Source of the DNA: a virus
Lineage: Duplodnaviria > Caudoviricetes
Length of the DNA stretch: 64,000 nucleotides
Strand: one strand, 5' to 3'
IMG/VR virus record: IMGVR_UViG_3300037400_001189
Span: 11,007-75,006 of that record
Position 1 is the first letter of the stretch, and each line of letters begins with the position of its first letter. This document shows, piece by piece, positions 3,920-48,022 of the stretch. The notes beneath the pieces are model-generated. The model was not told where the DNA came from, did no database searches, and saw nothing but the letters and a program-made list of their open reading frames with translations. The position numbers and the translations under genes were made by a program.

Positions 3920-4443
3920 GATTTACCCTCATAGTTTACAATGTCAAAAAGTACGTCTGTATCTTCTTCCCATCCATGCAGATAGCTGTTCCATGATTCT
4001 ACATGATCTACAATTATGTCCTGAAGAGCTCCATAGGATAGTGCTTCCCATTGAGCAAACTTTCGTACATCTATGGTATCATTGATGTAGCCGAAAGTAT
4101 GCTTTAGAGCTTCCTTCAAGTCAAAGGAAAAGGCATATTTTCCTGTTCCTCCTGCCTTCAGTTCATCAAGCCTCTGCTGTGCAAGAATTCTGCCTATCTT
4201 CCTGTCCCATCTGTCTTCAGGATTTCTTAATGCAAAGCCTACGTCTACATATACCTCTCCTGAAGAGTTGGGAGGATTGACGGAATATGCAATGGAAGCA
4301 CATGGAAGATACGATTCGAGATGCAGCCTGTAGAATTCATCGCTGAATTTCTCTACATTGTCTTCTCCTACATACATTGCACTATGCTGTCCCGGATAGG
4401 AGGAAGGCTTTGGATAGATATACTTAACTGTATTGAACTGCAT
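3916..4443 (-). CDS. Hypothetical phage protein
   Basis: 175-aa ORF overlapping both neighbours; VGFALRNPEDRWDRKIGRILA resembles a common phage motif. Confidence 0.7.
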   Translation of the reverse strand: MQFNTVKYIYPKPSSYPGQHSAMYVGEDNVEKFSDEFYRLHLESYLPCASIAYSVNPPNSSGEVYVDVGFALRNPEDRWDRKIGRILAQQRLDELKAGGTGKYAFSFDLKEALKHTFGYINDTIDVRKFAQWEALSYGALQDIIVDHVESWNSYLHGWEEDTDVLFDIVNYEGKS

Positions 4444-36311: not shown

Positions 36312-36722
36312 ATGAAAACAGCTGTCTGTAATTTGGAACTGTATCAGGGAAATGATGATATCTATGTTCTTAAGTTTGAAGACGTAGACAATGATGGAAA
36401 CAAGACTCAGTCGGATCTTACAGGATACTATTTCTTTATGGCTGTAAAGGCTGAAATAACTGGAGATGCATTGGCTGAATTGAGTACAGGCAATGGCTGT
36501 ATTCGTTCAGGTATACTGAATGAAGAAGGAAGCTTTGAAGATTCAGAAGTTAAGCCTTATGCCATTAGACTGCAGTTTCCTCACGAGTTTACTGAAACTC
36601 TTCAGTTTCCCAAGTATGTATATGACTTGTTTGGCATAAAGAAGGACGGAACTAGAGAAGTGCTCATGAAAGGCTCTCTAGACGTGTCTAGGAGCGTTAG
36701 CTATGGGTCTAAACGCAAATAG
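36312..36722 (+). CDS. Putative tail/baseplate adaptor (BppU N-terminal-like Ig fold)
   Basis: LELYQGNDD...DLTGY...YVYDL...LMKG pattern. Confidence 0.55.
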   Translation: MKTAVCNLELYQGNDDIYVLKFEDVDNDGNKTQSDLTGYYFFMAVKAEITGDALAELSTGNGCIRSGILNEEGSFEDSEVKPYAIRLQFPHEFTETLQFPKYVYDLFGIKKDGTREVLMKGSLDVSRSVSYGSKRK

Positions 36723-37020
36723 CATAGTTACAGTCCAGAAAGTAAGGCATAATGTTTCTGCCATAGAAAAGCCAAAGCATACTGAAATACTTGTAATGAA
36801 GGCTGCTGCTGGATCTGACGGCAGAGATGGCAGAAATGGATATGACGGAAGAGACGGCATAGATGGTCAGGATGGAGAAGTGTTTGTTCCTCATGTAAAT
36901 GACAGAGGCATTATAGAGTGGACAAAGGAATCTAATCCTGAATCTGCCAGTTCTATTAACATGCTGGCTAACATAGCTAGCATAACTAATATTGAAATTT
37001 TGAATATAGTAAATAGCTAG
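36703..37020 (+). CDS. Short collagen-repeat tail-associated protein ending in ITNIEIL
   Basis: GSDGRDGRNGYDGRDGIDGQDG Gly-X-Y repeats. Confidence 0.75.
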   Translation: MGLNANSIVTVQKVRHNVSAIEKPKHTEILVMKAAAGSDGRDGRNGYDGRDGIDGQDGEVFVPHVNDRGIIEWTKESNPESASSINMLANIASITNIEILNIVNS

Positions 37021-37028
37021 GAGATGGT

Positions 37029-38504
37029 ATGGCTGCTACAAAATATCTAGATTATGATGGTTTGCTTTATTTCTGGTCTTTAATCAAAGCTAAGCTTGCT
37101 CTTAAAGCTGATGCACAGTCTGTAACTGCAGGTTCATATGGACCTAGTGCTGATGCTAGTCCTGCACATAGCGGTACATTCAAGGTTCCTTATGTACAGG
37201 TAACTTCTCAAGGTGTTGTTACTGCTATTTCAGAGAAGACTATTACTCTTCCTGCTAGTGGCAATACTGATACCAAGGTAAAGCAGAACCTTAAGGCTAC
37301 TTCTGATACTGGCAAGTATCCTATTCTTTTAAAGAATAGTACCACAGCTACAGATAACCCTACAGGTGAAGCTAACTATGCTGCAGCTATTACTGTACAG
37401 CCTTCTACAGGTACAGTTAAAGCTACCAAGTTTGAAGGTGCAGTAACTGGCAATGCTGATAGTGCTACTGAATTTAGTTCTGCCCAGTCTGTGACTCTTA
37501 CTGGAGATGTTACTGGTACAGCATCTAGCAAAGCAGGATGGTCTATTGCCACTACTCTTGCTGATTCTGGTGTTGCTGCAGGAACAGTTGGCAATACTAC
37601 TCAGCAGACTCCTTCACATGGCGGTACATTTAATATTCCTTATGTAACTGTTGATGCTAAAGGCAGAGTTACTGCTGCAGGAACTACTACAGTAAAGCTT
37701 CCTGCTGATAACAATACAGATACTTTAGTTACTCAGAACGTTTCTACTGCTAATGAAGAACATCCTATTCTTTTAACTGTAACTAAGGATGCTGTTAACA
37801 ATCAAGGAGCAAAGACTTCTATATTTGCTGCTGGTGTTAAAGTTAATCCTTCTACCGGAACCATTACTGCTACAAAGTTTAGCGGTGCTGTACAAGGTAA
37901 AGCTACAGATGCAGATCATGCAGATGAAGCAGATGTTGCTGATAAAGTAACTAACGATTTAGTCCTTAAGATTAAAACTGGTACATCTGAAGGAACTAGT
38001 CTTTATACTTATAATGGCAGTGCAGGAAAGACTTTAGATATTAAACAGGGAAGTAATATTACTCTTACTGCTGCAGCTAACAGTCTTACTATTGCCGGTG
38101 TAGGTGATACAAAAAATACTGCTGGTTCTACTGATTCTTCTAGCAAGTTGTTTATTATAGGTGCTACTTCACAAGCAGCTAATCCTCAGACGTATAGCCA
38201 AGATACTGCTTATGTAGGTACTGATGGATGTTTGTATTCTAATAGCAAGAAATGTTTTACTTCAGATGATGCTTATACCAAAACTGAAATAGATAATAAA
38301 CTTACTTCTGCTATGCATTATAAGGGCAGTAAAAATACTTATGCTGATCTTCCTGCTACAGGTAATGCAGTAGGTGATTTTTACAATATTACTCAAACTG
38401 GAGAAAACTATGCTTGGACAGGTGATACATGGGATGTAACAGGCAGCATAGTTGATCTTCAGTCTATTACTAATGCTGAAATTGATACTGTAGTTGCTAG
38501 CTAA
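37029..38504 (+). CDS. Tail fibre protein (Thr/Ala-rich, internal duplications)
   Basis: Repeated PSHxGTFxxPYV and DTxVxQN...YPILL modules; N-terminal YLDYDGLLYFW; C-terminal ITNAEID. Confidence 0.8.
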   Translation: MAATKYLDYDGLLYFWSLIKAKLALKADAQSVTAGSYGPSADASPAHSGTFKVPYVQVTSQGVVTAISEKTITLPASGNTDTKVKQNLKATSDTGKYPILLKNSTTATDNPTGEANYAAAITVQPSTGTVKATKFEGAVTGNADSATEFSSAQSVTLTGDVTGTASSKAGWSIATTLADSGVAAGTVGNTTQQTPSHGGTFNIPYVTVDAKGRVTAAGTTTVKLPADNNTDTLVTQNVSTANEEHPILLTVTKDAVNNQGAKTSIFAAGVKVNPSTGTITATKFSGAVQGKATDADHADEADVADKVTNDLVLKIKTGTSEGTSLYTYNGSAGKTLDIKQGSNITLTAAANSLTIAGVGDTKNTAGSTDSSSKLFIIGATSQAANPQTYSQDTAYVGTDGCLYSNSKKCFTSDDAYTKTEIDNKLTSAMHYKGSKNTYADLPATGNAVGDFYNITQTGENYAWTGDTWDVTGSIVDLQSITNAEIDTVVAS

Positions 38505-38514
38505 GGAGTAGGTT

Positions 38515-41379
38515 ATGGCTGTAAAGTTTCTAGATAATACTGGCCTTGCTTATTTTTGGACGAAGATAAAGAACTACGTTATAAATTTGCTTAGCTCAAA
38601 AGCAGATGATTCTGCTGTTGTGCATATTGCTGAGGCAGAAACGGTAACTGGAGCTAAGACATTCACATCAACCGTTGCTACTAATGGCTCTTATACAAAA
38701 AAAGCAGGTAACATAGATAAAACGGCAACTGGTACTGGAGAACAGGAATCTGTAATATTCAATACCGTCGATAAAAATAACATTGCAATATGTCAATTAA
38801 ATGCAGAACGAAATCTTGTTGAAGCATTTCAAGAACTTCGATTTAGAAATTGGAATATCAATAATCTTTGGAGTGATTTTAGACTAAGATGTACTGATGA
38901 TAACAAATATTGGCTTACTATGGCGGCCAAAAATGGAATGAGTTTTGGTCTTTCTGCAACAGATAATAGTCTTAGCATTCCAACTACATCTTGGGTAAGA
39001 TCTGCAACTGGAAATTTTGCCTGCAATGCAGCCACCGCTTCTGCTGTTGCATGGTCTGGTATTACTAATAAACCTACGACTATATCTGGTTATGGTATTA
39101 CTGATGCCAAGATAGCCAATGGAACAATAACCCTTGGTTCCAATAGCATCACACCTTTAACTTCTCATCAAACATTACCTACTCTTAGTAGAACTATATC
39201 TGGTTCTGGTAATGCCATTACAGACATTACTGTATCCAATCATGCTATAACTGCTACTAAAGGAAGCACATTTCTTACATCTGCTTCTACTTTAGATGCT
39301 ACTAAGTTATCTGGTACTATTCCTTCTAGTTGCTATACTAATACAACTTATACTGCTGGTACTGGGTTATCTCTTAGTGGTACAAAGTTTTCTTTAGCTA
39401 GTCATAATCAGGCATCGAATACTATCAATGCTATGACCGGATACAGCAAGCCCAGTTCTACGTCTGCTATCGCGGCTAGTGATACTCTCAACCAAGCCAT
39501 AGGCAAGCTGGAAAAAGCCGTAGACGATGCAGATATTTCAAATGTTGTACATAAAACTGGCGATGAAATTATTCAAGGTGTAAAAACTTTTAGTAATGCT
39601 CATAATTGGTACACAGATGGTGCTGAAACTTTATCAAGTATTCAAATACAATGTCCTTTTTTAGAAAGGAACACAGTACCAGTAGATGCAAGTTATGGTG
39701 GTTTAATTATTTTAGATAAAAATGCTAATGGAGTTGATATAGATTATAGCCATAGATTAGCTGCATTAGAATTTTCTAAGTTAGCTGATAATACTTCTTA
39801 TATACGATTAAAAACATATAATCCAACAACTATAGGTGCTGGTTTTGAACAAATATCTGTAGGATATGATGAGAATACTATACCATATAGTACTGCTCCA
39901 TCTACATCTTTAGATAGAACTGATGGTGAAGATATTTTAACAAGAAATTGGATACCAAAAGATACAAGAATAGTACACACAACAGGTGCTGAAACTGTAG
40001 CTGGAGCTAAAACCCTAAATGATAAGTTAACTATAAATAATGAAATTCAAATAAATAGGGATAACGGTTCTGTATTCGGGTTATATCTTAGAGGTGCTAA
40101 TCAAAATTTTGGTATTTGTCTATCTGCTACAGATATAACTAAAGGTACAAATCCGAGTGCTACAGAACAATATGGTATAGGTTTTTACGGTACTGATGTA
40201 AGTAGCTGGAAGCAACGTATTGGTTATATAGGTGGTAAAGTAGCTACAAACGGATTGTGTACTTTTGGTATATATACCTATGATTTTCATAAAACTGATG
40301 GAACTAGTAGTGGTATTGAAGTTACTATAGATGCTAATGGTGCAGCATATACTTCTGCTGTTACTCCTGCAGCATCTTCAAATACAACAAATATTGCTAC
40401 TACTGCATGGGTAAGAACATTTTGTGATACTACTCAAAAATACATGAAAGCTGTATCTGTTACAGGATCTGGTAATGCTGTAACTACTGCTTCTCTTTCT
40501 AATGGTACTCTTACTCTTACTAAAGGAACTACATTTCTTACTAGTCATCAAAGTTTAGCTAATTATGCTACTTTAAATACTGAACAAACTTTTTCTCGTG
40601 GTAAACACTTTTGGTATTGGTCAGCTTTTAAAGATCAAACTTATACATATAAGCAACAAGTATATTGTGTAGTTCAATTTAGAGATAAAAATAATGCTAT
40701 TTATGCACAGAATAAAGTATTTGGATCAGAGGATGGTACAACAGCATATTATCAATGGATTTTAAACGATCCTAAAAAAACTATTAGTGATAGTAATAAC
40801 GTAACTATAGAATTAACTGTTACTAATTCTTCATGGACGTTTTGTCCAGTATCTAATAATGATAATGTTGTTACCCTAGGTTCTGCTGGAAGAAGATGGA
40901 AACAATTATATGCTGGTACTACTACTATTGGAACATCGGATAAACGGCTAAAAAATAGTATATCTGATATTCCTAGTAAAGTGTTAGATGCTTGGGATAA
41001 AATCAACTGGGTGCAATTCAAATTTAATGATGCTACTGATGAAAAGCCTGCTGATCAAGTTAGGCTACATACAGGTCTTATTGCCCAAGATATTCAACAA
41101 ATAATGTTGAATGATGATGTTGATATTAGTAAGTATGGACTATTTTGCTATGATGTATGGGAACATAAAGATCCTATATATGATAAAGAAGGAAATATTA
41201 TTCACAACGAGGTACAAGCTGGTGATAGGTATTCCTTACGTTATGAAGAAGCTCTCTGCATGGAAGCAGCATATCAAAGACGTAAAAATAAAATTTTAGA
41301 AAACCGTATCTCTGAACTTGAAAAGCAGGTTTCAGATATGCTAATTCTGTTACAGAATTTAACCAACGGTAATGGTTAA
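38515..41379 (+). CDS. Tail fibre / receptor-binding protein with C-terminal intramolecular chaperone (peptidase S74-like)
   Basis: Repeated VVHxxGxETxxGxKT linkers; SDKRLKN autocleavage motif; LHTGLIAQD; RYSLRYEE; coiled-coil end. Confidence 0.88.
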   Translation: MAVKFLDNTGLAYFWTKIKNYVINLLSSKADDSAVVHIAEAETVTGAKTFTSTVATNGSYTKKAGNIDKTATGTGEQESVIFNTVDKNNIAICQLNAERNLVEAFQELRFRNWNINNLWSDFRLRCTDDNKYWLTMAAKNGMSFGLSATDNSLSIPTTSWVRSATGNFACNAATASAVAWSGITNKPTTISGYGITDAKIANGTITLGSNSITPLTSHQTLPTLSRTISGSGNAITDITVSNHAITATKGSTFLTSASTLDATKLSGTIPSSCYTNTTYTAGTGLSLSGTKFSLASHNQASNTINAMTGYSKPSSTSAIAASDTLNQAIGKLEKAVDDADISNVVHKTGDEIIQGVKTFSNAHNWYTDGAETLSSIQIQCPFLERNTVPVDASYGGLIILDKNANGVDIDYSHRLAALEFSKLADNTSYIRLKTYNPTTIGAGFEQISVGYDENTIPYSTAPSTSLDRTDGEDILTRNWIPKDTRIVHTTGAETVAGAKTLNDKLTINNEIQINRDNGSVFGLYLRGANQNFGICLSATDITKGTNPSATEQYGIGFYGTDVSSWKQRIGYIGGKVATNGLCTFGIYTYDFHKTDGTSSGIEVTIDANGAAYTSAVTPAASSNTTNIATTAWVRTFCDTTQKYMKAVSVTGSGNAVTTASLSNGTLTLTKGTTFLTSHQSLANYATLNTEQTFSRGKHFWYWSAFKDQTYTYKQQVYCVVQFRDKNNAIYAQNKVFGSEDGTTAYYQWILNDPKKTISDSNNVTIELTVTNSSWTFCPVSNNDNVVTLGSAGRRWKQLYAGTTTIGTSDKRLKNSISDIPSKVLDAWDKINWVQFKFNDATDEKPADQVRLHTGLIAQDIQQIMLNDDVDISKYGLFCYDVWEHKDPIYDKEGNIIHNEVQAGDRYSLRYEEALCMEAAYQRRKNKILENRISELEKQVSDMLILLQNLTNGNG

Positions 41380-41407
41380 ATTATTCACTAACATTTAACA
41401 AAGGAGT

Positions 41408-42178
41408 ATGCCTATGGACAGTGTAGCTATGCCTGTTCTTGAAAACAGTGGTTTTGGTGGTGCTGGTATGGGTGCTGGTTTCATTGGTGGTTTAGTTCTT
41501 GGCTCCATCTGGAATGGTGGATGGGGAGGCTGGGGAGGCAATGGCAGAGGTGCTATGCAGGCAGGAGCAGATGTTGCTCTTGCTAATGCAGTAGAGCATG
41601 TTGGTGATGCTGTTAATCAGGGCACTATTTCTCAGCTTCAGTCTGCTAATCAGCTTGGTCTTCAGATTGCCAACAGCAATGCAGGTACTGTTAACGCTGT
41701 GAATCAGAATACCATTGCAGGCATGCAGGGCAATGCTCAGCTTGCTCAGCAGATGTGCATGTCTACTGGCAGATTGTCTCAGGAAATTGATCAGACTGGT
41801 GACATGACTAATGCTGCCATTAATCAGGTTAATATCCAGAGCATGCAGAATACTCAGGCTCTTGGTGAGAAGCTCTGTGCTATTAATAATAACATTACTT
41901 CTCAAGGCTACGAGAACAGGCTACAGGCTCAGGCATTAGCTTCTCAGCTTCAGGCTCAGCATGCAGAACTTTCTGCACAGATTTCTGATGAAAACTGCAA
42001 GGACAGGGAACTTATGCGTGAGATTGCTGCACAGAATGTCAGAGATCAGCTTGCTCAGGCTCAGGCTCAGAATGCTGCTCTTGTTGCTCAGATTAATCTT
42101 CAGGGACAGCTTCAGCAGCAAACCTTGTATCTTATCGACCAGTTGAAGACTACAACTACACCTACTGCAGGTGCATAG
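41408..42178 (+). CDS. Gly-rich hydrophobic N-terminus with Gln/Asn/Ala-rich coiled-coil body; function unknown
   Basis: GFGGAGMGAGFIGGLVLGSIWNGGWGG; Q/A-rich helices; followed by a terminator. Confidence 0.75.
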   Translation: MPMDSVAMPVLENSGFGGAGMGAGFIGGLVLGSIWNGGWGGWGGNGRGAMQAGADVALANAVEHVGDAVNQGTISQLQSANQLGLQIANSNAGTVNAVNQNTIAGMQGNAQLAQQMCMSTGRLSQEIDQTGDMTNAAINQVNIQSMQNTQALGEKLCAINNNITSQGYENRLQAQALASQLQAQHAELSAQISDENCKDRELMREIAAQNVRDQLAQAQAQNAALVAQINLQGQLQQQTLYLIDQLKTTTTPTAGA

Positions 42179-42203
42179 TAGACAATAGGTAGAAATTTGT
42201 ATA

Positions 42204-42233
42204 AGGAGCTTTATCAGTAAAGGTAAAGCTCCT
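42204..42233 (+). terminator. Rho-independent terminator
   Basis: AGGAGCTTTA/TAAAGCTCCT stem followed by ATTTT. Confidence 0.65.
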
Positions 42234-42254
42234 ATTTTATATAAGGAGTATGGT

Positions 42255-42716
42255 ATGGTGAGATGGATTTACCTTACTGGCAAGAAAGATACTACTGATG
42301 GTCTTATTGATGAACAGCTAAAGGAACAGATGCCTAACCATTCTTTTAGCGAATATGACCTTGAAGACCATGCTACTAAGCATAAGCTTGAACAAGTAAT
42401 GCATAATCTGGATGAATGGGTTAAAAAGCATATAGAAGAAAAAAAGGAAGAGCATTTCTATGACACTCAGAAGGAAATGATTACTTTTGAAAAACCAAAG
42501 GACTGGGCTTTCATGAAGCAGTCTGGAAATGTTCTTAAGAATTATCCTGCTACATGGATGACCTATCCTAATACTATAGAAGGAGCTAGGGGCATCATAG
42601 ACATGGAGTATAATGAGTATAAGAATGCAGCTTCATATCAGGATATAAGCCATGAACTGGTGCATCTAGCTTCAGCTTGTCTCTTGTTATGGAGGAAATT
42701 AAACAATGCTGAGTAA
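42255..42716 (+). CDS. Hypothetical protein
   Basis: 153-aa ORF with AAGGAG RBS. Confidence 0.7.
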   Translation: MVRWIYLTGKKDTTDGLIDEQLKEQMPNHSFSEYDLEDHATKHKLEQVMHNLDEWVKKHIEEKKEEHFYDTQKEMITFEKPKDWAFMKQSGNVLKNYPATWMTYPNTIEGARGIIDMEYNEYKNAASYQDISHELVHLASACLLLWRKLNNAE

Positions 42717-43278
42717 TCCCTACTTGCAGTCTTTTCAGCAGAACTATCTGCAACCACAGAGTTCTGACATGATAAAGATGCCTTCTTTGTCTCAGAATCT
42801 AGTGAAGCCTACTCTTGGTCTTACTCAAATAGAAAACTTCAAGCCAGTAGAACGGTTTACTGACAGTACTGGTACTCTATGGAAATTATCCAAATCTAGC
42901 TTTGATTCTACCAAGGATGTACCTGATCCTAAAGGAGTACAGATTTTAGACTACTGGAATCATGAGTTTCTTAATGTAAAGCAGAAGTTGTATGTTTATG
43001 TGGTAGAAGGCACTAGATTACCTAGAGTTGACACTGAGCAGCCTTCACGCATAATGTATCAATGGTTTAGTCAGACATTTGTTCCAAAGTTTGATCCTAC
43101 AATGATTACAGAGAAAGAATGGTTAAAAGCTAATATTTATTCTGCTCCAATAGTTGACTCTCGTGTAAGCAAGCTGTATGCGATATGTCATGTTACAGCT
43201 CCTGAACCACAAGTTGAAGCTGTCATAGACGAAAATGGTCTATTGAAAGTAGAGGAGCTGACTGATGAAACTGCTTAA
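42706..43278 (+). CDS. Hypothetical protein with Gln/Pro-rich N-terminus
   Basis: 190-aa ORF overlapping both neighbours. Confidence 0.7.
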   Translation: MLSNPYLQSFQQNYLQPQSSDMIKMPSLSQNLVKPTLGLTQIENFKPVERFTDSTGTLWKLSKSSFDSTKDVPDPKGVQILDYWNHEFLNVKQKLYVYVVEGTRLPRVDTEQPSRIMYQWFSQTFVPKFDPTMITEKEWLKANIYSAPIVDSRVSKLYAICHVTAPEPQVEAVIDENGLLKVEELTDETA

Positions 43279-43483
43279 AGATGTAGAGGATTTCATTAAG
43301 AAAGATGACAGAAATCCTGCAGAGCAGATGAACTATATAAAACAGCTTGGTACAATGATGATGTTCAGCTCTAGGCTGCATAGGGATCATGTAGTAGCTT
43401 TCTGTGGTTCATTATTAGGCATGTATGAAAACTTAAATAAAGATGCTGATGAGCAGGAACAGCTCATTAAGCTGGAGAAGTAA
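43265..43483 (+). CDS. Small hypothetical protein
   Basis: 72-aa ORF abutting the next gene. Confidence 0.65.
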   Translation: MKLLKDVEDFIKKDDRNPAEQMNYIKQLGTMMMFSSRLHRDHVVAFCGSLLGMYENLNKDADEQEQLIKLEK

Positions 43484-45961
43484 ATGGCATATTTAGATTA
43501 TCCCGGACTAGCCTACTTTAAAAGTCTCTTGGATCAAACCTACCTTCGTGTAGATTATGATGGAGACACTACTATTGCAGGTCATGTCACTTTCACTAAT
43601 CCAATTACTGGAGATATTGATGGCAGAGCTAAAAAAGATTGGCTAGGTCAGCAATTTGATACTACTTATCTCAAGGACATTCAGCCTGATGAAAGTGGTG
43701 CATTAAAGCTTATTCTTGGCAATGGACAAGTATCCCATCTAGTAACTGATACTACAGTTACTCAGGAACGTTCTAGTGCTAATGAAACCTATCCTATTCT
43801 TCTTTGCTATGATGAAAATGCAACAGCTGATCAAATAGCCAAGAAAGTTAAGTATGGTCATGATGTGCAGATTAATCCTGCATATGGCTATATCTATGCT
43901 CAAGGCTATGTAGAAAAGCATCCTGCGTACAACCGTACTACTGCTCAGTCTTCTAGAGTAGAATGGATGTTTGATTTTAGAGATAGTGTTCTTAATCCTG
44001 TTGGTCAGATTTACAGCTATATTGATCCATCTGGTCAAGGTGGAGAGCATAGAATGGAATTTAGGCTGTATGGTAATCCTCATACAACTAGCCTTAATCT
44101 TCCAAACTATAACTTTGAGACAGATACTGTAAGCCTTGGTGTAAGTTCTACTAAAGGTGACAAGCTTACCTTCTTTGGTTATGCACCTTCTACCCCAATA
44201 TACCTTGAAAACGGTTCTACTATGCGTAAGTCTACTGTTCGTGGTGACCAGTATGGTAGAGATATTATTACTCGTGACTGGCTTAATTTAAATGGTTCCA
44301 TTACTGGCTTAGTTCATACCTATATGGATGAAACTATTGATGGTTACAAAACATTCTTAAAGACTGTTACTATTGATAGTGGCAATGATAATGCCAAGGC
44401 TGGACTAAATGTTCAGGGTGATGTCAATATTGATAGTGGAGATGCTAGCAAACCTAGCAACCTTTATGTTCAGGGCAATAGTCATATCCACGGCAATGAG
44501 GACATTGACGGTAATCTGAATGTTGATGGTACTAGCGATCAGCATGGCAATGTTCATATGTATCATAATCTTGATGTAGATGGTAATGCCAATACCGATG
44601 GTAATCAGACCATAGGTGGTATTCTTACTGTTACAGGCAAGATTACTGGCAATGGTGGTGCTGAAATCAGTGGTGGTAGTGGATTAAAAGTTAATGGTAC
44701 TACAACTACTACTAATCTTTCTGTTACTGATGATGCTACTATTGGTGATGATTTAACTGTTAATGGTGATACTTCTGTTGCAGGATCTTTAAATAAAATC
44801 GTTAATAATGCTGTAACTGAATATGTTCAATATATTACTAATCAACCTTCTAATAGACAGCAAATTGCTGCTAACTTAATAGATACCTCTAAGGGTTTAA
44901 AGCTTTATAGTGGTAAGATTGGTGTTAATGCTGGTCAGAGTTTATCCTTTGATTCTAATGGTGTAATTGATGTTGATTTTGATCAAATGCCTACTGATAA
45001 ATTTGAAAAACTTTTACAGCAATTACATTTACCTCTTTATGTAGGTGAAAAGAATGGTTCCAGCACTATCGGTACTGAATTTTATGTAGCTCCTAATGGT
45101 GTAAACAATACTGCAGATGGTCGTGGTAGATCTGCAGATAAGCCTTGGCAGACTATTGCTTATGCTACTCAAACTATTGCTAAAAACTATAACATTAGCA
45201 CAAAGACTGTTCATATTAATGTAGCTGCAGGTGAATATGATGAACATGTAGATTTGCCTATGCTCCAACGTACTACAGGTAAAGTGGTTATTCGTCCTGC
45301 TAGTTCTAATGCTTCTGTTACAATTTCTAGGAATGCTGCATCTGGTGGTTGTATTGCTCATACAGGTGGTGCTTGGGAGCTTCATAAAATTACTTTAAAA
45401 ATGACGATTCAAACTGCAAGTTCTAATTCATTTCCATATTTAGTAGAATCTACAGATTCAACTGGTTATGTTGAATTGCATGGATGTCCAATGCAAGTTA
45501 TTGATAGTACGTCTGGCACTACTCAAACAGATGCTAGATTAATTTGGGTTGCTGGTGGTAAAATTAATATCAATACTCATAACGATTTTACAGGAACAGA
45601 TTCCCAGATTACTTGGTCCCGTACTGGTACTAATATTAACTCTTTACATTGGCTGTATATTGAAAATAGTGGTGTAGTTCAGTTTCTTAGAAGTACAGCA
45701 TCAGGTAATAAAGTTATTAATGTAACTGGTACATTTAATACTTTTGCTAAAGTTCTTTACATGGGATTACTTAGGTATTTAGGTACAGGTACAGGTGTTT
45801 CATTTACGGGTAATGCTACCGGTACTGAATTTGCTGTTAGTACTGGTGGTGCTATTACTACAGATGCTGAAAACAATGCTCACTGGTTCCCCGGTGATAC
45901 TAATGGCTGGGTATCTTCTGGTACTGGTTCTTGGATTTCTCCTGCCGCTAACTATGAATAA
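43484..45961 (+). CDS. Tail fibre/tailspike protein with beta-helix-like C-terminal domain
   Basis: N-terminal YLDYPGLAYF; (L/I)xVxG repeats; FYVAPNG...G...DKPWQTIAYA...INVAAGEY pectin-lyase-like start. Confidence 0.8.
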   Translation: MAYLDYPGLAYFKSLLDQTYLRVDYDGDTTIAGHVTFTNPITGDIDGRAKKDWLGQQFDTTYLKDIQPDESGALKLILGNGQVSHLVTDTTVTQERSSANETYPILLCYDENATADQIAKKVKYGHDVQINPAYGYIYAQGYVEKHPAYNRTTAQSSRVEWMFDFRDSVLNPVGQIYSYIDPSGQGGEHRMEFRLYGNPHTTSLNLPNYNFETDTVSLGVSSTKGDKLTFFGYAPSTPIYLENGSTMRKSTVRGDQYGRDIITRDWLNLNGSITGLVHTYMDETIDGYKTFLKTVTIDSGNDNAKAGLNVQGDVNIDSGDASKPSNLYVQGNSHIHGNEDIDGNLNVDGTSDQHGNVHMYHNLDVDGNANTDGNQTIGGILTVTGKITGNGGAEISGGSGLKVNGTTTTTNLSVTDDATIGDDLTVNGDTSVAGSLNKIVNNAVTEYVQYITNQPSNRQQIAANLIDTSKGLKLYSGKIGVNAGQSLSFDSNGVIDVDFDQMPTDKFEKLLQQLHLPLYVGEKNGSSTIGTEFYVAPNGVNNTADGRGRSADKPWQTIAYATQTIAKNYNISTKTVHINVAAGEYDEHVDLPMLQRTTGKVVIRPASSNASVTISRNAASGGCIAHTGGAWELHKITLKMTIQTASSNSFPYLVESTDSTGYVELHGCPMQVIDSTSGTTQTDARLIWVAGGKININTHNDFTGTDSQITWSRTGTNINSLHWLYIENSGVVQFLRSTASGNKVINVTGTFNTFAKVLYMGLLRYLGTGTGVSFTGNATGTEFAVSTGGAITTDAENNAHWFPGDTNGWVSSGTGSWISPAANYE

Positions 45962-45963
45962 TT

Positions 45964-46551
45964 ATGATAGTTCAAGACATTATTTCTTTAATACAGATTA
46001 GATCTCAGCATCTTGCTATAGCCAAGAATAATGATGCTATTATTCATTTCATTAATCTTGGAATGGAAGAGCTTTATCGTAGATTTAATCTGTCTATTAA
46101 ATCAGAAACAGTATTAACTGTATCTGATAGAGCTCTCTATGAGCTTTCTAATGAAGATGTGCAGATGCTGTTATCTCTTAATCATAGAACTGGCATAGAA
46201 ATGAAACAGTCTGATGTACTAGATTCTATGAACTATGACTATAAGATAGTAAACTATAGATCTTTTATATTAAGAAAACCATTTGATGGCTATGTCTATG
46301 CTATTTATAAAGCATCTCCAGTTATGTTAAGAGATATAAACGACAAGATAAAGCTTCCTGGTACTATGATTCCTGCACTGCTTACTTATGTCATGTACAT
46401 GAGTCATGATGTCATAAATAGAGATAATAAGACTGAATCTAATAATTTCTACAAGATGTTTGAACTGCAGTGCAGGGAACTTGATTTACAAGGCTTTACA
46501 GTTCCTTTAAATACTGAAAGCACAGCTGTACAGGCTAGAGGATATGTATAA
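45964..46551 (+). CDS. Head-tail adaptor / tail protein (N4 gp67-like)
   Basis: IIHFINLGMEELYRRF motif; position before the portal block. Confidence 0.6.
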   Translation: MIVQDIISLIQIRSQHLAIAKNNDAIIHFINLGMEELYRRFNLSIKSETVLTVSDRALYELSNEDVQMLLSLNHRTGIEMKQSDVLDSMNYDYKIVNYRSFILRKPFDGYVYAIYKASPVMLRDINDKIKLPGTMIPALLTYVMYMSHDVINRDNKTESNNFYKMFELQCRELDLQGFTVPLNTESTAVQARGYV

Positions 46552-46973
46552 TGATATATACATGCATAGGTAATATACCTCTTCAGGTACATCCTAGATG
46601 CAGACATGCTCCTATGGATGTGTATCATAAGAAGAAATGGTGCAAACCTGTTAAAGGTACATTAAGCGAGATAAATGCTTCTCAGCCTTATCTGTATGTC
46701 AATGAAACTATGGATGGCTGTAAGGAAGTTAAATATCATGTTAATTTGATTGATCTGTTAGACAGGGTTTTTATGAATGACAATTTGAAGAATCTCAGCG
46801 AGGAGCAGATGGAGTTTATTACTGCCTTCTTTGAACAGGCAGGACTAGCTACAGACAGAATTAGGTCCAATGTTCCCAATCCATACAGCGGCATGGATGA
46901 AGCATTCATGGACTTAAACAGCTTCTTAGGAGGTTATTCAGGAGTTGACTATGGGCAATATGCACGACTGTAA
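46551..46973 (+). CDS. Hypothetical virion-module protein
   Basis: 140-aa ORF coupled to the gp67-like gene. Confidence 0.65.
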   Translation: MIYTCIGNIPLQVHPRCRHAPMDVYHKKKWCKPVKGTLSEINASQPYLYVNETMDGCKEVKYHVNLIDLLDRVFMNDNLKNLSEEQMEFITAFFEQAGLATDRIRSNVPNPYSGMDEAFMDLNSFLGGYSGVDYGQYARL

Positions 46974-47655
46974 CTGTACACCTCCACCTTCTGGTGGACT
47001 TCCTCCTAAATTTCATCCTATGCCTCCATACTGGGGCTATGGATTTCCACCTCCTCCAATGGGAGGCTGCATGCCTCCTCCACCTCCTGCTCCTTATAGG
47101 CCAGCTCCTTATCCTCATGTGCATGGATGTCCTGATCATCCTCATATGCTAGATCCAAAGCATCTGCATTTGTTTCTAGAGGAAAGGAACAACAAGAATA
47201 ACAGTTTCATCGCCAATGTTAACGTAGTAGCTGCTAATATTAATTCTCTTAATCTAGTGGCTAACCATATGTGCGAAATCATCAGGGTTGCATATGGCAT
47301 GGAAGATATTCAGATGGTTTCTGAACATCTGGAATACGTTAACTTTCTTGCCAAGAACATTGGTCCTATTACTGCTCTTATTTCCCAAAATTCTGGTCTT
47401 GCATTTAGATTTGTAGATACTGTAGTCATTGATGAACCACAGGATGAACAGTATGTGATTACATTTGCAGACGAGTATGCTGGATACCTTCCCGGCAGTG
47501 CAATGCTGCTAGTATCCTATAATGGAGCAGACTGCAGAATTGGAGAGCAGTACGAGGAAGTGGGAGATATTGGAGTTCTTTCCAATAAAGTGAAGATGCT
47601 GTTCCCGTTGAGAGCAGGAGACGAGATTACATTCAGAGTTATTGCACAGTGCTAG
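46945..47655 (+). CDS. Tail-associated protein with Pro/His-rich N-terminus and small beta-sandwich C-terminus
   Basis: PPPP runs; ANVNVVAANIN; YNG...YEEVG...FPLRAGDEITF. Confidence 0.65.
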   Translation: MTMGNMHDCNCTPPPSGGLPPKFHPMPPYWGYGFPPPPMGGCMPPPPPAPYRPAPYPHVHGCPDHPHMLDPKHLHLFLEERNNKNNSFIANVNVVAANINSLNLVANHMCEIIRVAYGMEDIQMVSEHLEYVNFLAKNIGPITALISQNSGLAFRFVDTVVIDEPQDEQYVITFADEYAGYLPGSAMLLVSYNGADCRIGEQYEEVGDIGVLSNKVKMLFPLRAGDEITFRVIAQC

Positions 47656-47719
47656 TATAGTGGAGGCTCTGCTTCGGCAGAGTCTCTGCTATGTGTAATG
47701 TTCCTGATAGGAGGATGCT

Positions 47720-48022
47720 ATGGGTAAAGCCCCTAAAGTATGGATTCCAGTAGCAACTGGTACTACTGCTGAACGTGATCTCAGAGATCGTTTTGCAGAC
47801 TTTATTAATTTGAAAGACTATGGTGCTGTAGGTGATCAGGTAACTGACGATACTACTGCTTGGAATTATTTTCAGACTGCAGAAGGTGGAGTGAAGTACA
47901 TTCCTAGAGGTCACTATCGGGTTAATGGAGAAATTCTTCATTATCCAGATGGAGAGATTCTTGGCTATGTAAAGATTCCTGACACTATAACTAATCCGCA
48001 GATTCTTGCACTGTTCGAGTAG
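47720..48022 (+). CDS. Stand-alone tailspike neck fragment ending in ITNPQIL
   Basis: RDLRDRFADFINLKDYGAVGDQVTDDT...YIPRGHY, the classic tailspike N-terminal segment, stopping at 100 aa. Confidence 0.7.
   Translation: MGKAPKVWIPVATGTTAERDLRDRFADFINLKDYGAVGDQVTDDTTAWNYFQTAEGGVKYIPRGHYRVNGEILHYPDGEILGYVKIPDTITNPQILALFE

Follow-up and report, generated by a model that had tools for sequence, protein, structure and literature searches.

Short terminal peptides as a probable joint between separately encoded tail fibre segments of tailed phages

The window analyzed here, 64,000 nucleotides of a 75-kb tailed-phage (Caudoviricetes) genome, contains fibre genes whose products share two short terminal peptides (Table 1; proteins are named by the first position of their genes). 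Three proteins of 100 to 491 aa carry ITNxx(I/L) 11 to 12 residues before the stop, a peptide here called the tail, and three fibre proteins begin with (Y/F)LDxxGLxYF, called the head. When the sequence and translations were read again, all six peptides of the original prediction were found where it had placed them. The chained genes 36703, 37029, and 38515 are separated by gaps of 8 and 10 nt, each with a GGAG ribosome-binding site, and their frames differ, which rules out a joining of the open reading frames (ORFs) by read-through, frameshifting, or an alternative code; they are separate cistrons.

Table 1. Fibre-related genes and terminal peptides in the window (functional names are putative)
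Feature	Position	Strand	Remarks
Small phrog_1084-type protein, 136 aa	36312..36722	+	PHROG match, E 8.9e-15; upstream of first anchor gene, adjoining and overlapping it
Anchor protein 1, 105 aa	36703..37020	+	Gly-X-Y run; headless; class-1-type tail
Tail 1	36982-37017	+	ITNIEILNIVNS; C-terminus of 36703
Linker fibre, 491 aa	37029..38504	+	Head 1, repeat shaft, small beta knob, tail 2
Head 1	from 37029	+	MAATKYLDYDGLLYFW; longer form MAATKYLDYDGLLYFWSLIK, 37029-37088
Tail 2	38466-38501	+	ITNAEIDTVVAS; C-terminus of 37029
Distal receptor-binding fibre, 954 aa	38515..41379	+	Head 2; no tail; C-terminal Peptidase_S74 chaperone from ~40936
Head 2	from 38515	+	MAVKFLDNTGLAYFW; longer form MAVKFLDNTGLAYFWTKIK, 38515-38571
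Second receptor-binding protein, 825 aa	43484..45961	+	Class-3 head, K replacing the usual W; tailless
Head 3	from 43484	+	MAYLDYPGLAYFK; longer form MAYLDYPGLAYFKSLL, 43484-43531
Anchor protein 3, 100 aa	47720..48022	+	Class-3 tail; N-terminus like the start of a pectate-lyase-type tailspike
Tail 3	47987-48019	+	ITNPQILALFE; C-terminus of 47720

According to Pfam, a complete receptor-binding domain is absent from both 36703 and 47720, and 36703, 37029, and 47720 give no match to a Gp10-type domain. The score of 36703 against Pfam Collagen is 18.9 bits, below the cut-off of 27.2, and Gly-X-Y triplets are visible at about residues 37 to 59; in sister phages its homologues carry ITNAEIYSLVNS and ITNSEIYGIVNGE at the C-terminus, each with a linker gene next. 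Linker versions in sister phages keep both ends around a shaft of 275 to 533 aa. The S74 intramolecular chaperone of 38515 is recognized by Pfam PF13884 (52.1 bits, cut-off 22) and by PDB 3gud (E 1.8e-24). PF12708 matches 47720 with 37.9 bits over profile positions 1 to 66 of 213 only, after which comes the tail; the beta-helix domain is incomplete.

In all six frames of the 75-kb genome, the head pattern occurs exactly three times, each time at residues 2 to 6 of a large fibre gene, and it appeared in none of 300 residue shuffles. Taken alone in a single genome, the pattern ITNxx[IL] is only weakly distinctive (2.8 six-frame matches expected, 6 observed), and three matches lying 10 to 13 residues before a stop were reached in at least 1 of 300 shuffles (mean, 0.39). 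Given that the tail motif is not significant by shuffling in a single genome, its significance rests on comparative data.

Viral contigs were surveyed with the strictest forms of the motifs as seeds, and the counts cover the matches listed. About 128 of the 132 head matches listed lay 2 to 6 residues after the start Met. A tail was present on a same-strand ORF ending just upstream of the head, mostly 2 to 31 nt away, in 101 of 110 dereplicated junctions listed, against a background in which the tail regex matches 6.8% of all ORF ends; about 9 of the 110 listed junctions and a few tails had no recognizable neighbouring partner, some of them through ORF-calling or locus-end effects. The reverse survey with ITNxEIDxI listed 113 unique matches, 68 of them 11 to 15 residues from a real ORF stop; a head followed in 52 of these 68 by regex and in about 11 further, divergent cases by eye, and 32 internal matches listed were in unrelated proteins with no head after them. 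An exhaustive search with a head profile recovered 3,117 protein clusters at E <= 0.001, and the head started at residue 1 to 5 in 149 of the best 150. Thousands of proteins, mostly from gut phages, carry the start peptide; carriers include the window's SU10-portal phage, Crassvirales, a Streptococcus prophage, and many uncultured gut phages. The tail/head grammar is found in Streptococcus phage Javan105, a named Gram-positive prophage, and, in a divergent form, in the crAss-like phage cr131_1.

Conservation is limited to the last ~14 residues (tail) and the first ~19 (head); the domains alongside are unrelated, and the tail follows at least four different folds. The bodies between the conserved ends are heavily shuffled, and conserved module boundaries are known in mosaic phage genomes (PMC10684548), as would be expected if the ends were mainly recombination joints for swapping fibre modules and not a protein interface. 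We consider this highly improbable, given that synonymous variation affects every tail codon position, with Ser written as both TCN and AGY, which points to selection on the peptide, the DNA not being conserved; that the peptides are strictly terminal and missing from fused fibres; and that an interface is modelled. A recombination benefit could be secondary to a real interface. The description of the peptides as halves of a split domain, part of the original prediction, is not supported: no in-frame tail-to-head fusion was found in 215 loci, and longer or fused fibres either contain the same knob internally and lack both peptides or carry the tail as their extreme C-terminus. Two second-stretch matches from the head-profile search were inspected as candidate fusions and are not fusions.

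Adjacency by itself could mirror a conserved gene cassette. Tail-binding N-terminal anchor domains are usual in phage receptor-binding proteins (PMC12692247, PMC13352976) and the cassette order is conserved, in keeping with heads that are generic attachment peptides for a common tail or baseplate socket, tails that serve, for example, as a trimerization clamp, and adjacency that is merely inherited. This reading is very unlikely in our view, given the numbers of heads and tails, which are equal per whole record (2:2 in four and 3:3 in the window's genome, five records in all, with one tail, IANSEIDTILAS, missed by the regex and added by eye); chain-starting proteins are, moreover, tailed but headless, the class of a tail goes with that of its head, the class-3 pair is present or absent as a unit, and the complex model puts the head on the tail while controls score zero.

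The correspondence of classes is drawn from related sequences, in which events are not independent: among the junctions listed, EID-type tails precede GLx terminal heads in 51, EIE or other tails precede GLL linker heads in 26, and about 9 cross classes, and tail positions 75, 77, and 78 covary with head position 12 (z 7 to 9). The tail-head pair 77-12 is a confident contact in the complex model. Of 30 linkers, 28 have a tail of another class than the tail encoded upstream of their head. Judged by sequence, the matched classes appear to run from anchor to linker to receptor binder, an order that the window fits.

The genes of the window's third pair, 47720 and 43484, lie 4.2 kb apart in reversed order. 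Their predicted partnership gains support from sister phage L218, which has the two homologous genes side by side, the class-3 tail gene being directly followed by a gene with the head MAYVDRDRLAYFLSKL. Both class-3 genes are present in L217, which encodes a full-length homologue of 43484 (43% identity, same head) and a 134-aa protein with 64% identity to 47720. From the 30 kb of L216/L220 read, both the class-3 tail and the head are missing, and a single 822-aa spike, unsplit and beginning like 47720, is present there; residues 11 to 53 of 47720 are 58% identical to the start of this spike. The tail of 47720 is matched in L218 by the tail of a 119-aa protein that is unrelated in other respects.

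For one of the window's three pairs, 37029/38515, we modelled a complex of three copies of the last 80 aa of 37029 and three of the first 70 aa of 38515 from alignments that we supplied. This cognate pair reached an ipSAE of 0.79, compared with 0.00 for the best of three controls; in the calibration, 58 of 80 solved complexes attained the mark applied, as did 2 of 110 mismatched pairs, counts that hold only roughly for 3+3 copies with supplied alignments. Contact agreement between runs was 100%, with partner pLDDT of at least 88. The modelled interface comprises residues 64-80 of chain 1 and residues 1-15, 17, and 21 of chain 2, which are exactly the two motifs. The last 80 aa of 37029 are predicted to fold as a beta knob with a 9-residue terminal helix, and the head of 38515 as a turn and a 22-residue helix. 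The score is unlikely to reflect memory of a solved structure, since no similar solved complex exists by sequence. The model thus supports tail-head binding, short of demonstrating it.

Fibre genes of many myophages and siphophages are followed by a gene for a chaperone or adhesin that sits on the fibre's C-terminal tip (T2-type gp38, Mu/P2 Tfa). The frequency of this arrangement, together with the small size (120 to 190 aa) of some head-bearing partners, would suit a tail that docks a downstream assembly factor or tip adhesin and is no shaft joint. We give this extremely little credence: head-bearing partners in the window and sister phages are fibres of 354 to 1641 aa with their own S74 chaperone or a beta-helix (491, 954, and 825 aa in the window, not small assembly factors), linkers bear both head and tail, and chains of three to four genes exist (L012/L070). 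The distal fibre of one sister phage matches PF21446 (Gp34_trimer).

The docking of a C-terminal peptide on the next fibre's N-terminal peptide, the core of the original prediction, was supported by every test run, namely two-way adjacency, strictly terminal position, independence from flanking folds, equal head and tail counts, the shared presence or absence of both third-pair members, class covariation, and the 3+3 model. Most likely, then, the 12-residue C-terminal and 17-residue N-terminal peptides serve as end-to-end connections between separately encoded fibre segments. We hold it highly probable that the joint is non-covalent and lies between trimeric segments, with matched classes, a fixed order, and exchangeable modules. 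An end-to-end arrangement of separately encoded trimeric segments is supported by the 3+3 model and the gene grammar; we infer the trimeric stoichiometry, the assembly order, and the role in module exchange.

In the proposed joint, the proximal protein would end in a short helix of ~12 residues, (I/L)(T/S)N-x-E-(I/L)-x-x-hydrophobic-hydrophobic, and the distal protein would start, over ~20 residues, with a turn, (Y/F)LDxxG, that leads into a long amphipathic helix, LxYFWxKIK. Short and long helices, three of each, would pack in parallel, each tail contacting two heads, and, owing to this parallel packing, the fibre would continue in the same direction. One chain would lead from anchor 36703 through linker 37029 to receptor-binding fibre 38515, and another from anchor 47720 to receptor-binding protein 43484. 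Because there are several matched tail/head classes, a linker's tail would not be cognate to its own head, and such non-cognate ends would fix the order of assembly and prevent self-polymerization. Shafts and receptor-binding modules would be exchangeable as whole genes, since the joint does not depend on the domains that flank it.

The closest validated analogue is the branching-domain and conserved-peptide system of Klebsiella podophages KP32, K11, and KP34, in which a conserved 29-aa N-terminal peptide docks a separate receptor-binding protein (RBP) non-covalently onto another RBP; loss of either partner abolishes incorporation, and the peptide can carry foreign RBPs (PMC6872550, PMC13352976). 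By analogy only, the window's head is likewise a short conserved peptide at the extreme N-terminus (17 to 19 residues). However, the Klebsiella socket is an internal T4gp10-like branching domain, whereas the modelled socket of the window is the C-terminal 12 to 17 residues; the Klebsiella primary RBP keeps its enzymatic domain and yields a branched complex, whereas the window's anchors are without a receptor-binding domain and are modelled end to end. The long tail fibre of T4 is likewise one fibre made of several separately encoded segments placed end to end (gp34-gp35-gp36-gp37; PMC3004832). Window proteins have no Pfam match indicating gp34-37 homology. The T4 fibre also includes a monomeric hinge protein, and we know of no shared peptide code that recurs at each of its joints. 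The CBA120 and G7C-type multi-tailspike complexes also build RBPs on one another via dedicated N-terminal structures, but, as summarized in PMC13352976, they use folded N-terminal domains and branching, with no overlap of C- and N-terminal helices as modelled for the window. In crAss001 the tail-fibre hub is a folded A2B trimer and not a C-terminal tail, and flexibility kept the joints between its fibres from being resolved (PMC10172136). The "chain-like fibers" of podophage A1002 were considered as the same design and differ, being fibre dimers strung on a rope protein.

Neither peptide is covered by a family model in Pfam, NCBIfam, or PHROGs, where matches fall on downstream body domains; head-bearing proteins are spread over 35 PHROGs. 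When the PDB was queried by sequence, the 491-aa protein and the tail, head, and head-only profiles yielded spurious matches only, and no significant fold match emerged from a Foldseek search of the PDB with the knob-plus-tail model (best E 0.0096, TMq 0.51). No near-identical DNA was found among deposited phages, and no published description of the motif strings or the peptide pair was found in the literature searched.

The host range of tailed phages is set by fibres that are highly mosaic and hard to annotate. We lean toward a connector standard, in which a few mutually orthogonal tail/head pairs specify partner and order across unrelated lineages and over 3,000 protein clusters. In that case, gene ends would reveal fibre architecture, the code showing which adjoining "hypothetical proteins" form one fibre and how they are ordered, and receptor-binding genes would be cartridges, naturally exchangeable as whole units, which would explain their transfer between unrelated phages without in-frame recombination. 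Small headless, tail-bearing proteins would be marked as side-fibre anchors, and the 3+3 helices would offer a small structural target for joints so far too flexible, such as those of crAss001. Klebsiella phages already validate the principle that a conserved peptide can dock an RBP, and the window's system would be a second, far more widespread solution with a different socket and linear geometry.

The product of 36312..36722 may be the base of the fibre chain; a phrog_1084-type gene also lies upstream of the first tail-bearing anchor in L002, Javan105, L216, L217, L056, and L102.

Translation of the window bore out all six peptide positions of the original prediction: three proteins end in a C-terminal ITNxx(I/L) peptide (here, the tail), and three start with an N-terminal (Y/F)LDxxGLxYF peptide (the head); genes are named by their start positions. 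Across all six frames of the entire 75-kb source genome, of which the window covers 64 kb, the head pattern occurs solely at these three N termini, and it had 0 matches in 300 shuffles. The short tail pattern alone had no significance in a shuffle test inside this single genome, so the weight of the tail motif comes from its position and from cross-genome comparison. Genes 36703 and 37029 are separated by 8 nt and genes 37029 and 38515 by 10 nt, with a GGAG site in each gap and a change of frame. The phage also encodes, by family search, an SU10-type portal and adaptor.

Locations of the tail- and head-bearing proteins and of neighboring or related features
Feature	Location	Size	Details
Tail-ended protein	window, 36703	105 aa	ITNxx(I/L) 11-12 residues from stop
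Tail-ended and head-starting protein	window, 37029	491 aa	tail 11-12 residues from stop; head at residues 2-6
Head-starting protein	window, 38515	954 aa	(Y/F)LDxxGLxYF at residues 2-6
Head-starting protein	window, 43484	825 aa	head MAYLDYPGLAYFKSLL at residues 2-6
Tail-ended protein	window, 47720	100 aa	tail GYVKIPDTITNPQILALFE 11-12 residues from stop
phrog_1084-type small protein	window, 36312-36722		overlaps start of first anchor gene
Four-gene block	window, 41408-43483		Gly/Gln-rich 253-256-aa protein with GGxG N terminus, then three small genes
Four-gene block	L216:18118-20203		as in the window
Four-gene block	L217:14409-16507		as in the window
Long open frame	L218:11249-12780		starts MSTEFLDKSGLAYFWGKIK, directly after linker gene; absent from the collection's gene list
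Head gene	L008:3361-4470	371 codons	MNFLDKTGL*YFW; TAG at head position 12
Head gene	L072:42-1150	371 codons	MNFLDKTGL*YFW; TAG at head position 12
Annotated CDS of cr60_1 (NC_055891.1)	L001:3779-4309		extends beyond table-11 stop at 4249

Surveys of viral contigs in both directions, seeded with strict motif forms, gave the adjacency statistics that the original prediction had proposed as a check. The forward survey, a DNA-pattern scan for [YF]LDxxGLxYFW, found at least 118 loci. Among the matches listed, the head lies 2 to 6 residues after the start Met in about 128 of 132, and the open reading frame (ORF) that ends just upstream on the same strand (mostly by 2 to 31 nt) bears a tail at 101 of 110 dereplicated junctions; tails were scored as [TS]Nx[ED][IL]xx-hydrophobic, a form carried by 6.8% of all ORF ends. 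Scanning in reverse, for ITNxEIDxI, returned at least 113 unique matches; among those listed, 68 lie in a real ORF, 11 to 15 residues short of its stop codon, and a head follows in 52 of these by regular expression and in about 11 more, of divergent form, by eye. The 32 internal matches listed belong to unrelated proteins, and none of the 32 has a head after it. Heads and tails balance at 2:2 in four whole viral records and at 3:3 in the window's genome, counting one tail, IANSEIDTILAS, that was missed by the regular expression and added by eye; across these five records, no stray head or tail match was found among the 148 to 266 six-frame ORFs of each. A search of 1.84 billion representative proteins with a profile of the head alone matched 3,117 clusters at E ≤ 0.001, with the head starting at residue 1 to 5 in 149 of the best 150.

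In alignments, only the C-terminal ~14 and N-terminal ~19 residues are conserved, and the domains beside the peptides are unrelated, with at least four different folds ahead of the tail. Each tail position shows synonymous codon variation, so selection acts on the peptide rather than on a DNA or RNA signal. The one part of the original prediction without support is that the peptides are halves of a split domain: no frame runs from tail into head in 215 loci. The two profile matches that align over a second stretch are not fusions. Proteins of >860 aa with the C-terminal knob of the linker are of two kinds: in one the knob is internal and is followed by an ordinary shaft, with neither peptide, and in the other it stands at the very end and carries the tail. 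The peptides thus belong to split junctions and are not pieces of a domain that occurs elsewhere in unsplit form.

For the cognate pair 37029/38515, one of three in the window, we ran the multimer modeling suggested earlier, using three copies each of the 80 C-terminal residues of 37029 and the 70 N-terminal residues of 38515 with 34-row alignments. The model reached an ipSAE of 0.79 (best of three controls, 0.00). When the tool was calibrated, 58 of the 80 solved complexes but 2 of the 110 mismatched pairs attained the mark, counts that are only a rough guide here because our own alignments and 3+3 copies were used. Contact agreement between runs was 100%, with partner pLDDT of at least 88. 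The confident interface comprises residues 475 to 491 of 37029 and residues 1 to 15, 17, and 21 of 38515, and so coincides with the two motifs alone. Every tail contacts two copies of the head, and the contacts advance in step along the tail and head sequences, indicating a parallel overlap. The model supports binding of the 38515 head by the 37029 tail. Folded alone, the tail end forms a small beta knob with a 9-residue terminal helix and the head a turn and a 22-residue helix. A profile search of the PDB found no chain with either motif, and a fold search found no match showing such a joint.

The peptides fall into classes that follow gene order. Headless anchor proteins, often of 70 to 110 aa, end in xTNxE(I/L)E/xxxLx and are followed by YLDx(D/N)GLLY(F/L)W heads; proteins starting with that head (linkers) end in I(T/S)NxEIDTIVAS, a tail that precedes YLDxxGL(K/S/T/A/R/Q)YFW heads on terminal receptor-binding proteins, many of which finish in a tail-collar domain. 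The window chain 36703 to 37029 to 38515 fits this grammar exactly, and the longest chains have four genes (L012/L070). Dereplicated junctions among the matches listed number 51 and 26 in the two matched classes, with about 9 crossing, and covariation with head position 12 was seen at positions 75, 77, and 78 of the tail (z of 7 to 9 versus shuffles); as both results come from related sequences, they are supportive rather than independent. Of 30 related linkers, 28 end in a tail of a different class from the one that precedes their head, as a non-polymerizing chain requires. A phrog_1084-type gene also lies before the first tail-bearing anchor in L002, Javan105, L216, L217, L056, and L102, and its product may tie the chain to the virion.

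In ~75-kb relatives, the linker's head and tail are almost unchanged around a shaft of 275 to 533 aa. Shafts of the 37029-38504 homologues (P0001-P0026) differ by whole repeat units between invariant ends, so that fiber length appears to be tuned by repeat gain and loss. The third window pair, 47720 and 43484, has its counterpart in sister phage L218, where a 119-aa protein ending GYVKVGDLVTNQQIDAMFA, matching the 47720 tail, is directly followed by a 1,146-aa pectate-lyase/S74 fiber starting MAYVDRDRLAYFLSKL, matching the 43484 head. Sister phage L217 retains both homologues, non-adjacent as in the window. In L216 and L220, neither occurs over 30 kb of structural genes, and the place of 43484 is taken by an unsplit 822-aa spike, residues 10 to 52 of which are 58% identical to 47720. 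Judged from this shared N terminus, 47720 looks like the N-terminal attachment part of a spike, severed and fitted with a tail on which a receptor-binding protein with a head would mount. In L216, the four-gene block kept in sister phages has another location with respect to the adaptor genes, reflecting a rearrangement of the structural module. In L218, the listed 158-aa S74 "gene" is probably the C-terminal end of the long unlisted frame.

By analogy, we regard the receptor-binding proteins (RBPs) of Klebsiella podophages KP32, K11, and KP34 as the closest validated relative in kind: RBP2 has a conserved peptide of 29 residues at its N terminus, which docks on a T4gp10-like branching domain in RBP1, and neither part is dispensable (PMC13352976, PMC6872550). 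The principle of peptide docking proposed here from sequences and a model is alike. However, the socket is a C-terminal tail in the window phage and an internal domain in the podophages, the geometry is linear (as modeled) rather than branched, and the Gp10-like domain of Klebsiella RBP1 was absent from the window's tail-bearing proteins by family search. The T4 long tail fiber likewise consists of separately encoded segments (PMC3004832) but has no homology to the window proteins, and fiber-to-fiber joints are not resolved in the crAss001 atlas (PMC10172136). The motif strings had no match in the papers searched, and the family libraries contain no model of either peptide.

The same grammar occurs in Streptococcus phage Javan105, a prophage of S. 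constellatus, in the order 70-aa protein ending SITNIELEELLK, 197-aa protein (MATKYLDNNGLLYVW...SITNEEIDVFFV), 170-aa protein (MAKKFLSKEGLDRFYEKIK), and holin; a divergent form is found in crAss-like phage cr131_1 and high-GC fecal contig L002. The strict head is present in few deposited phage genomes, and the head-bearing family is mostly uncultured. On contigs L008 and L072 (97.5 kb and 64.9 kb), the head gene has 14 in-frame TAGs and TAG is therefore a sense codon; Gln at the TAG within the head would restore the common GLQYFW. In crAss-like cr60_1, translation by table 11 gives a product with a divergent tail at its end, VTSDEVSTVVSMT; next come an Mtd-like tail protein and then a reverse transcriptase, which suggests that a diversity-generating retroelement adjoins the junction. 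A reverse transcriptase gene is likewise close to the tail and head genes of L002.
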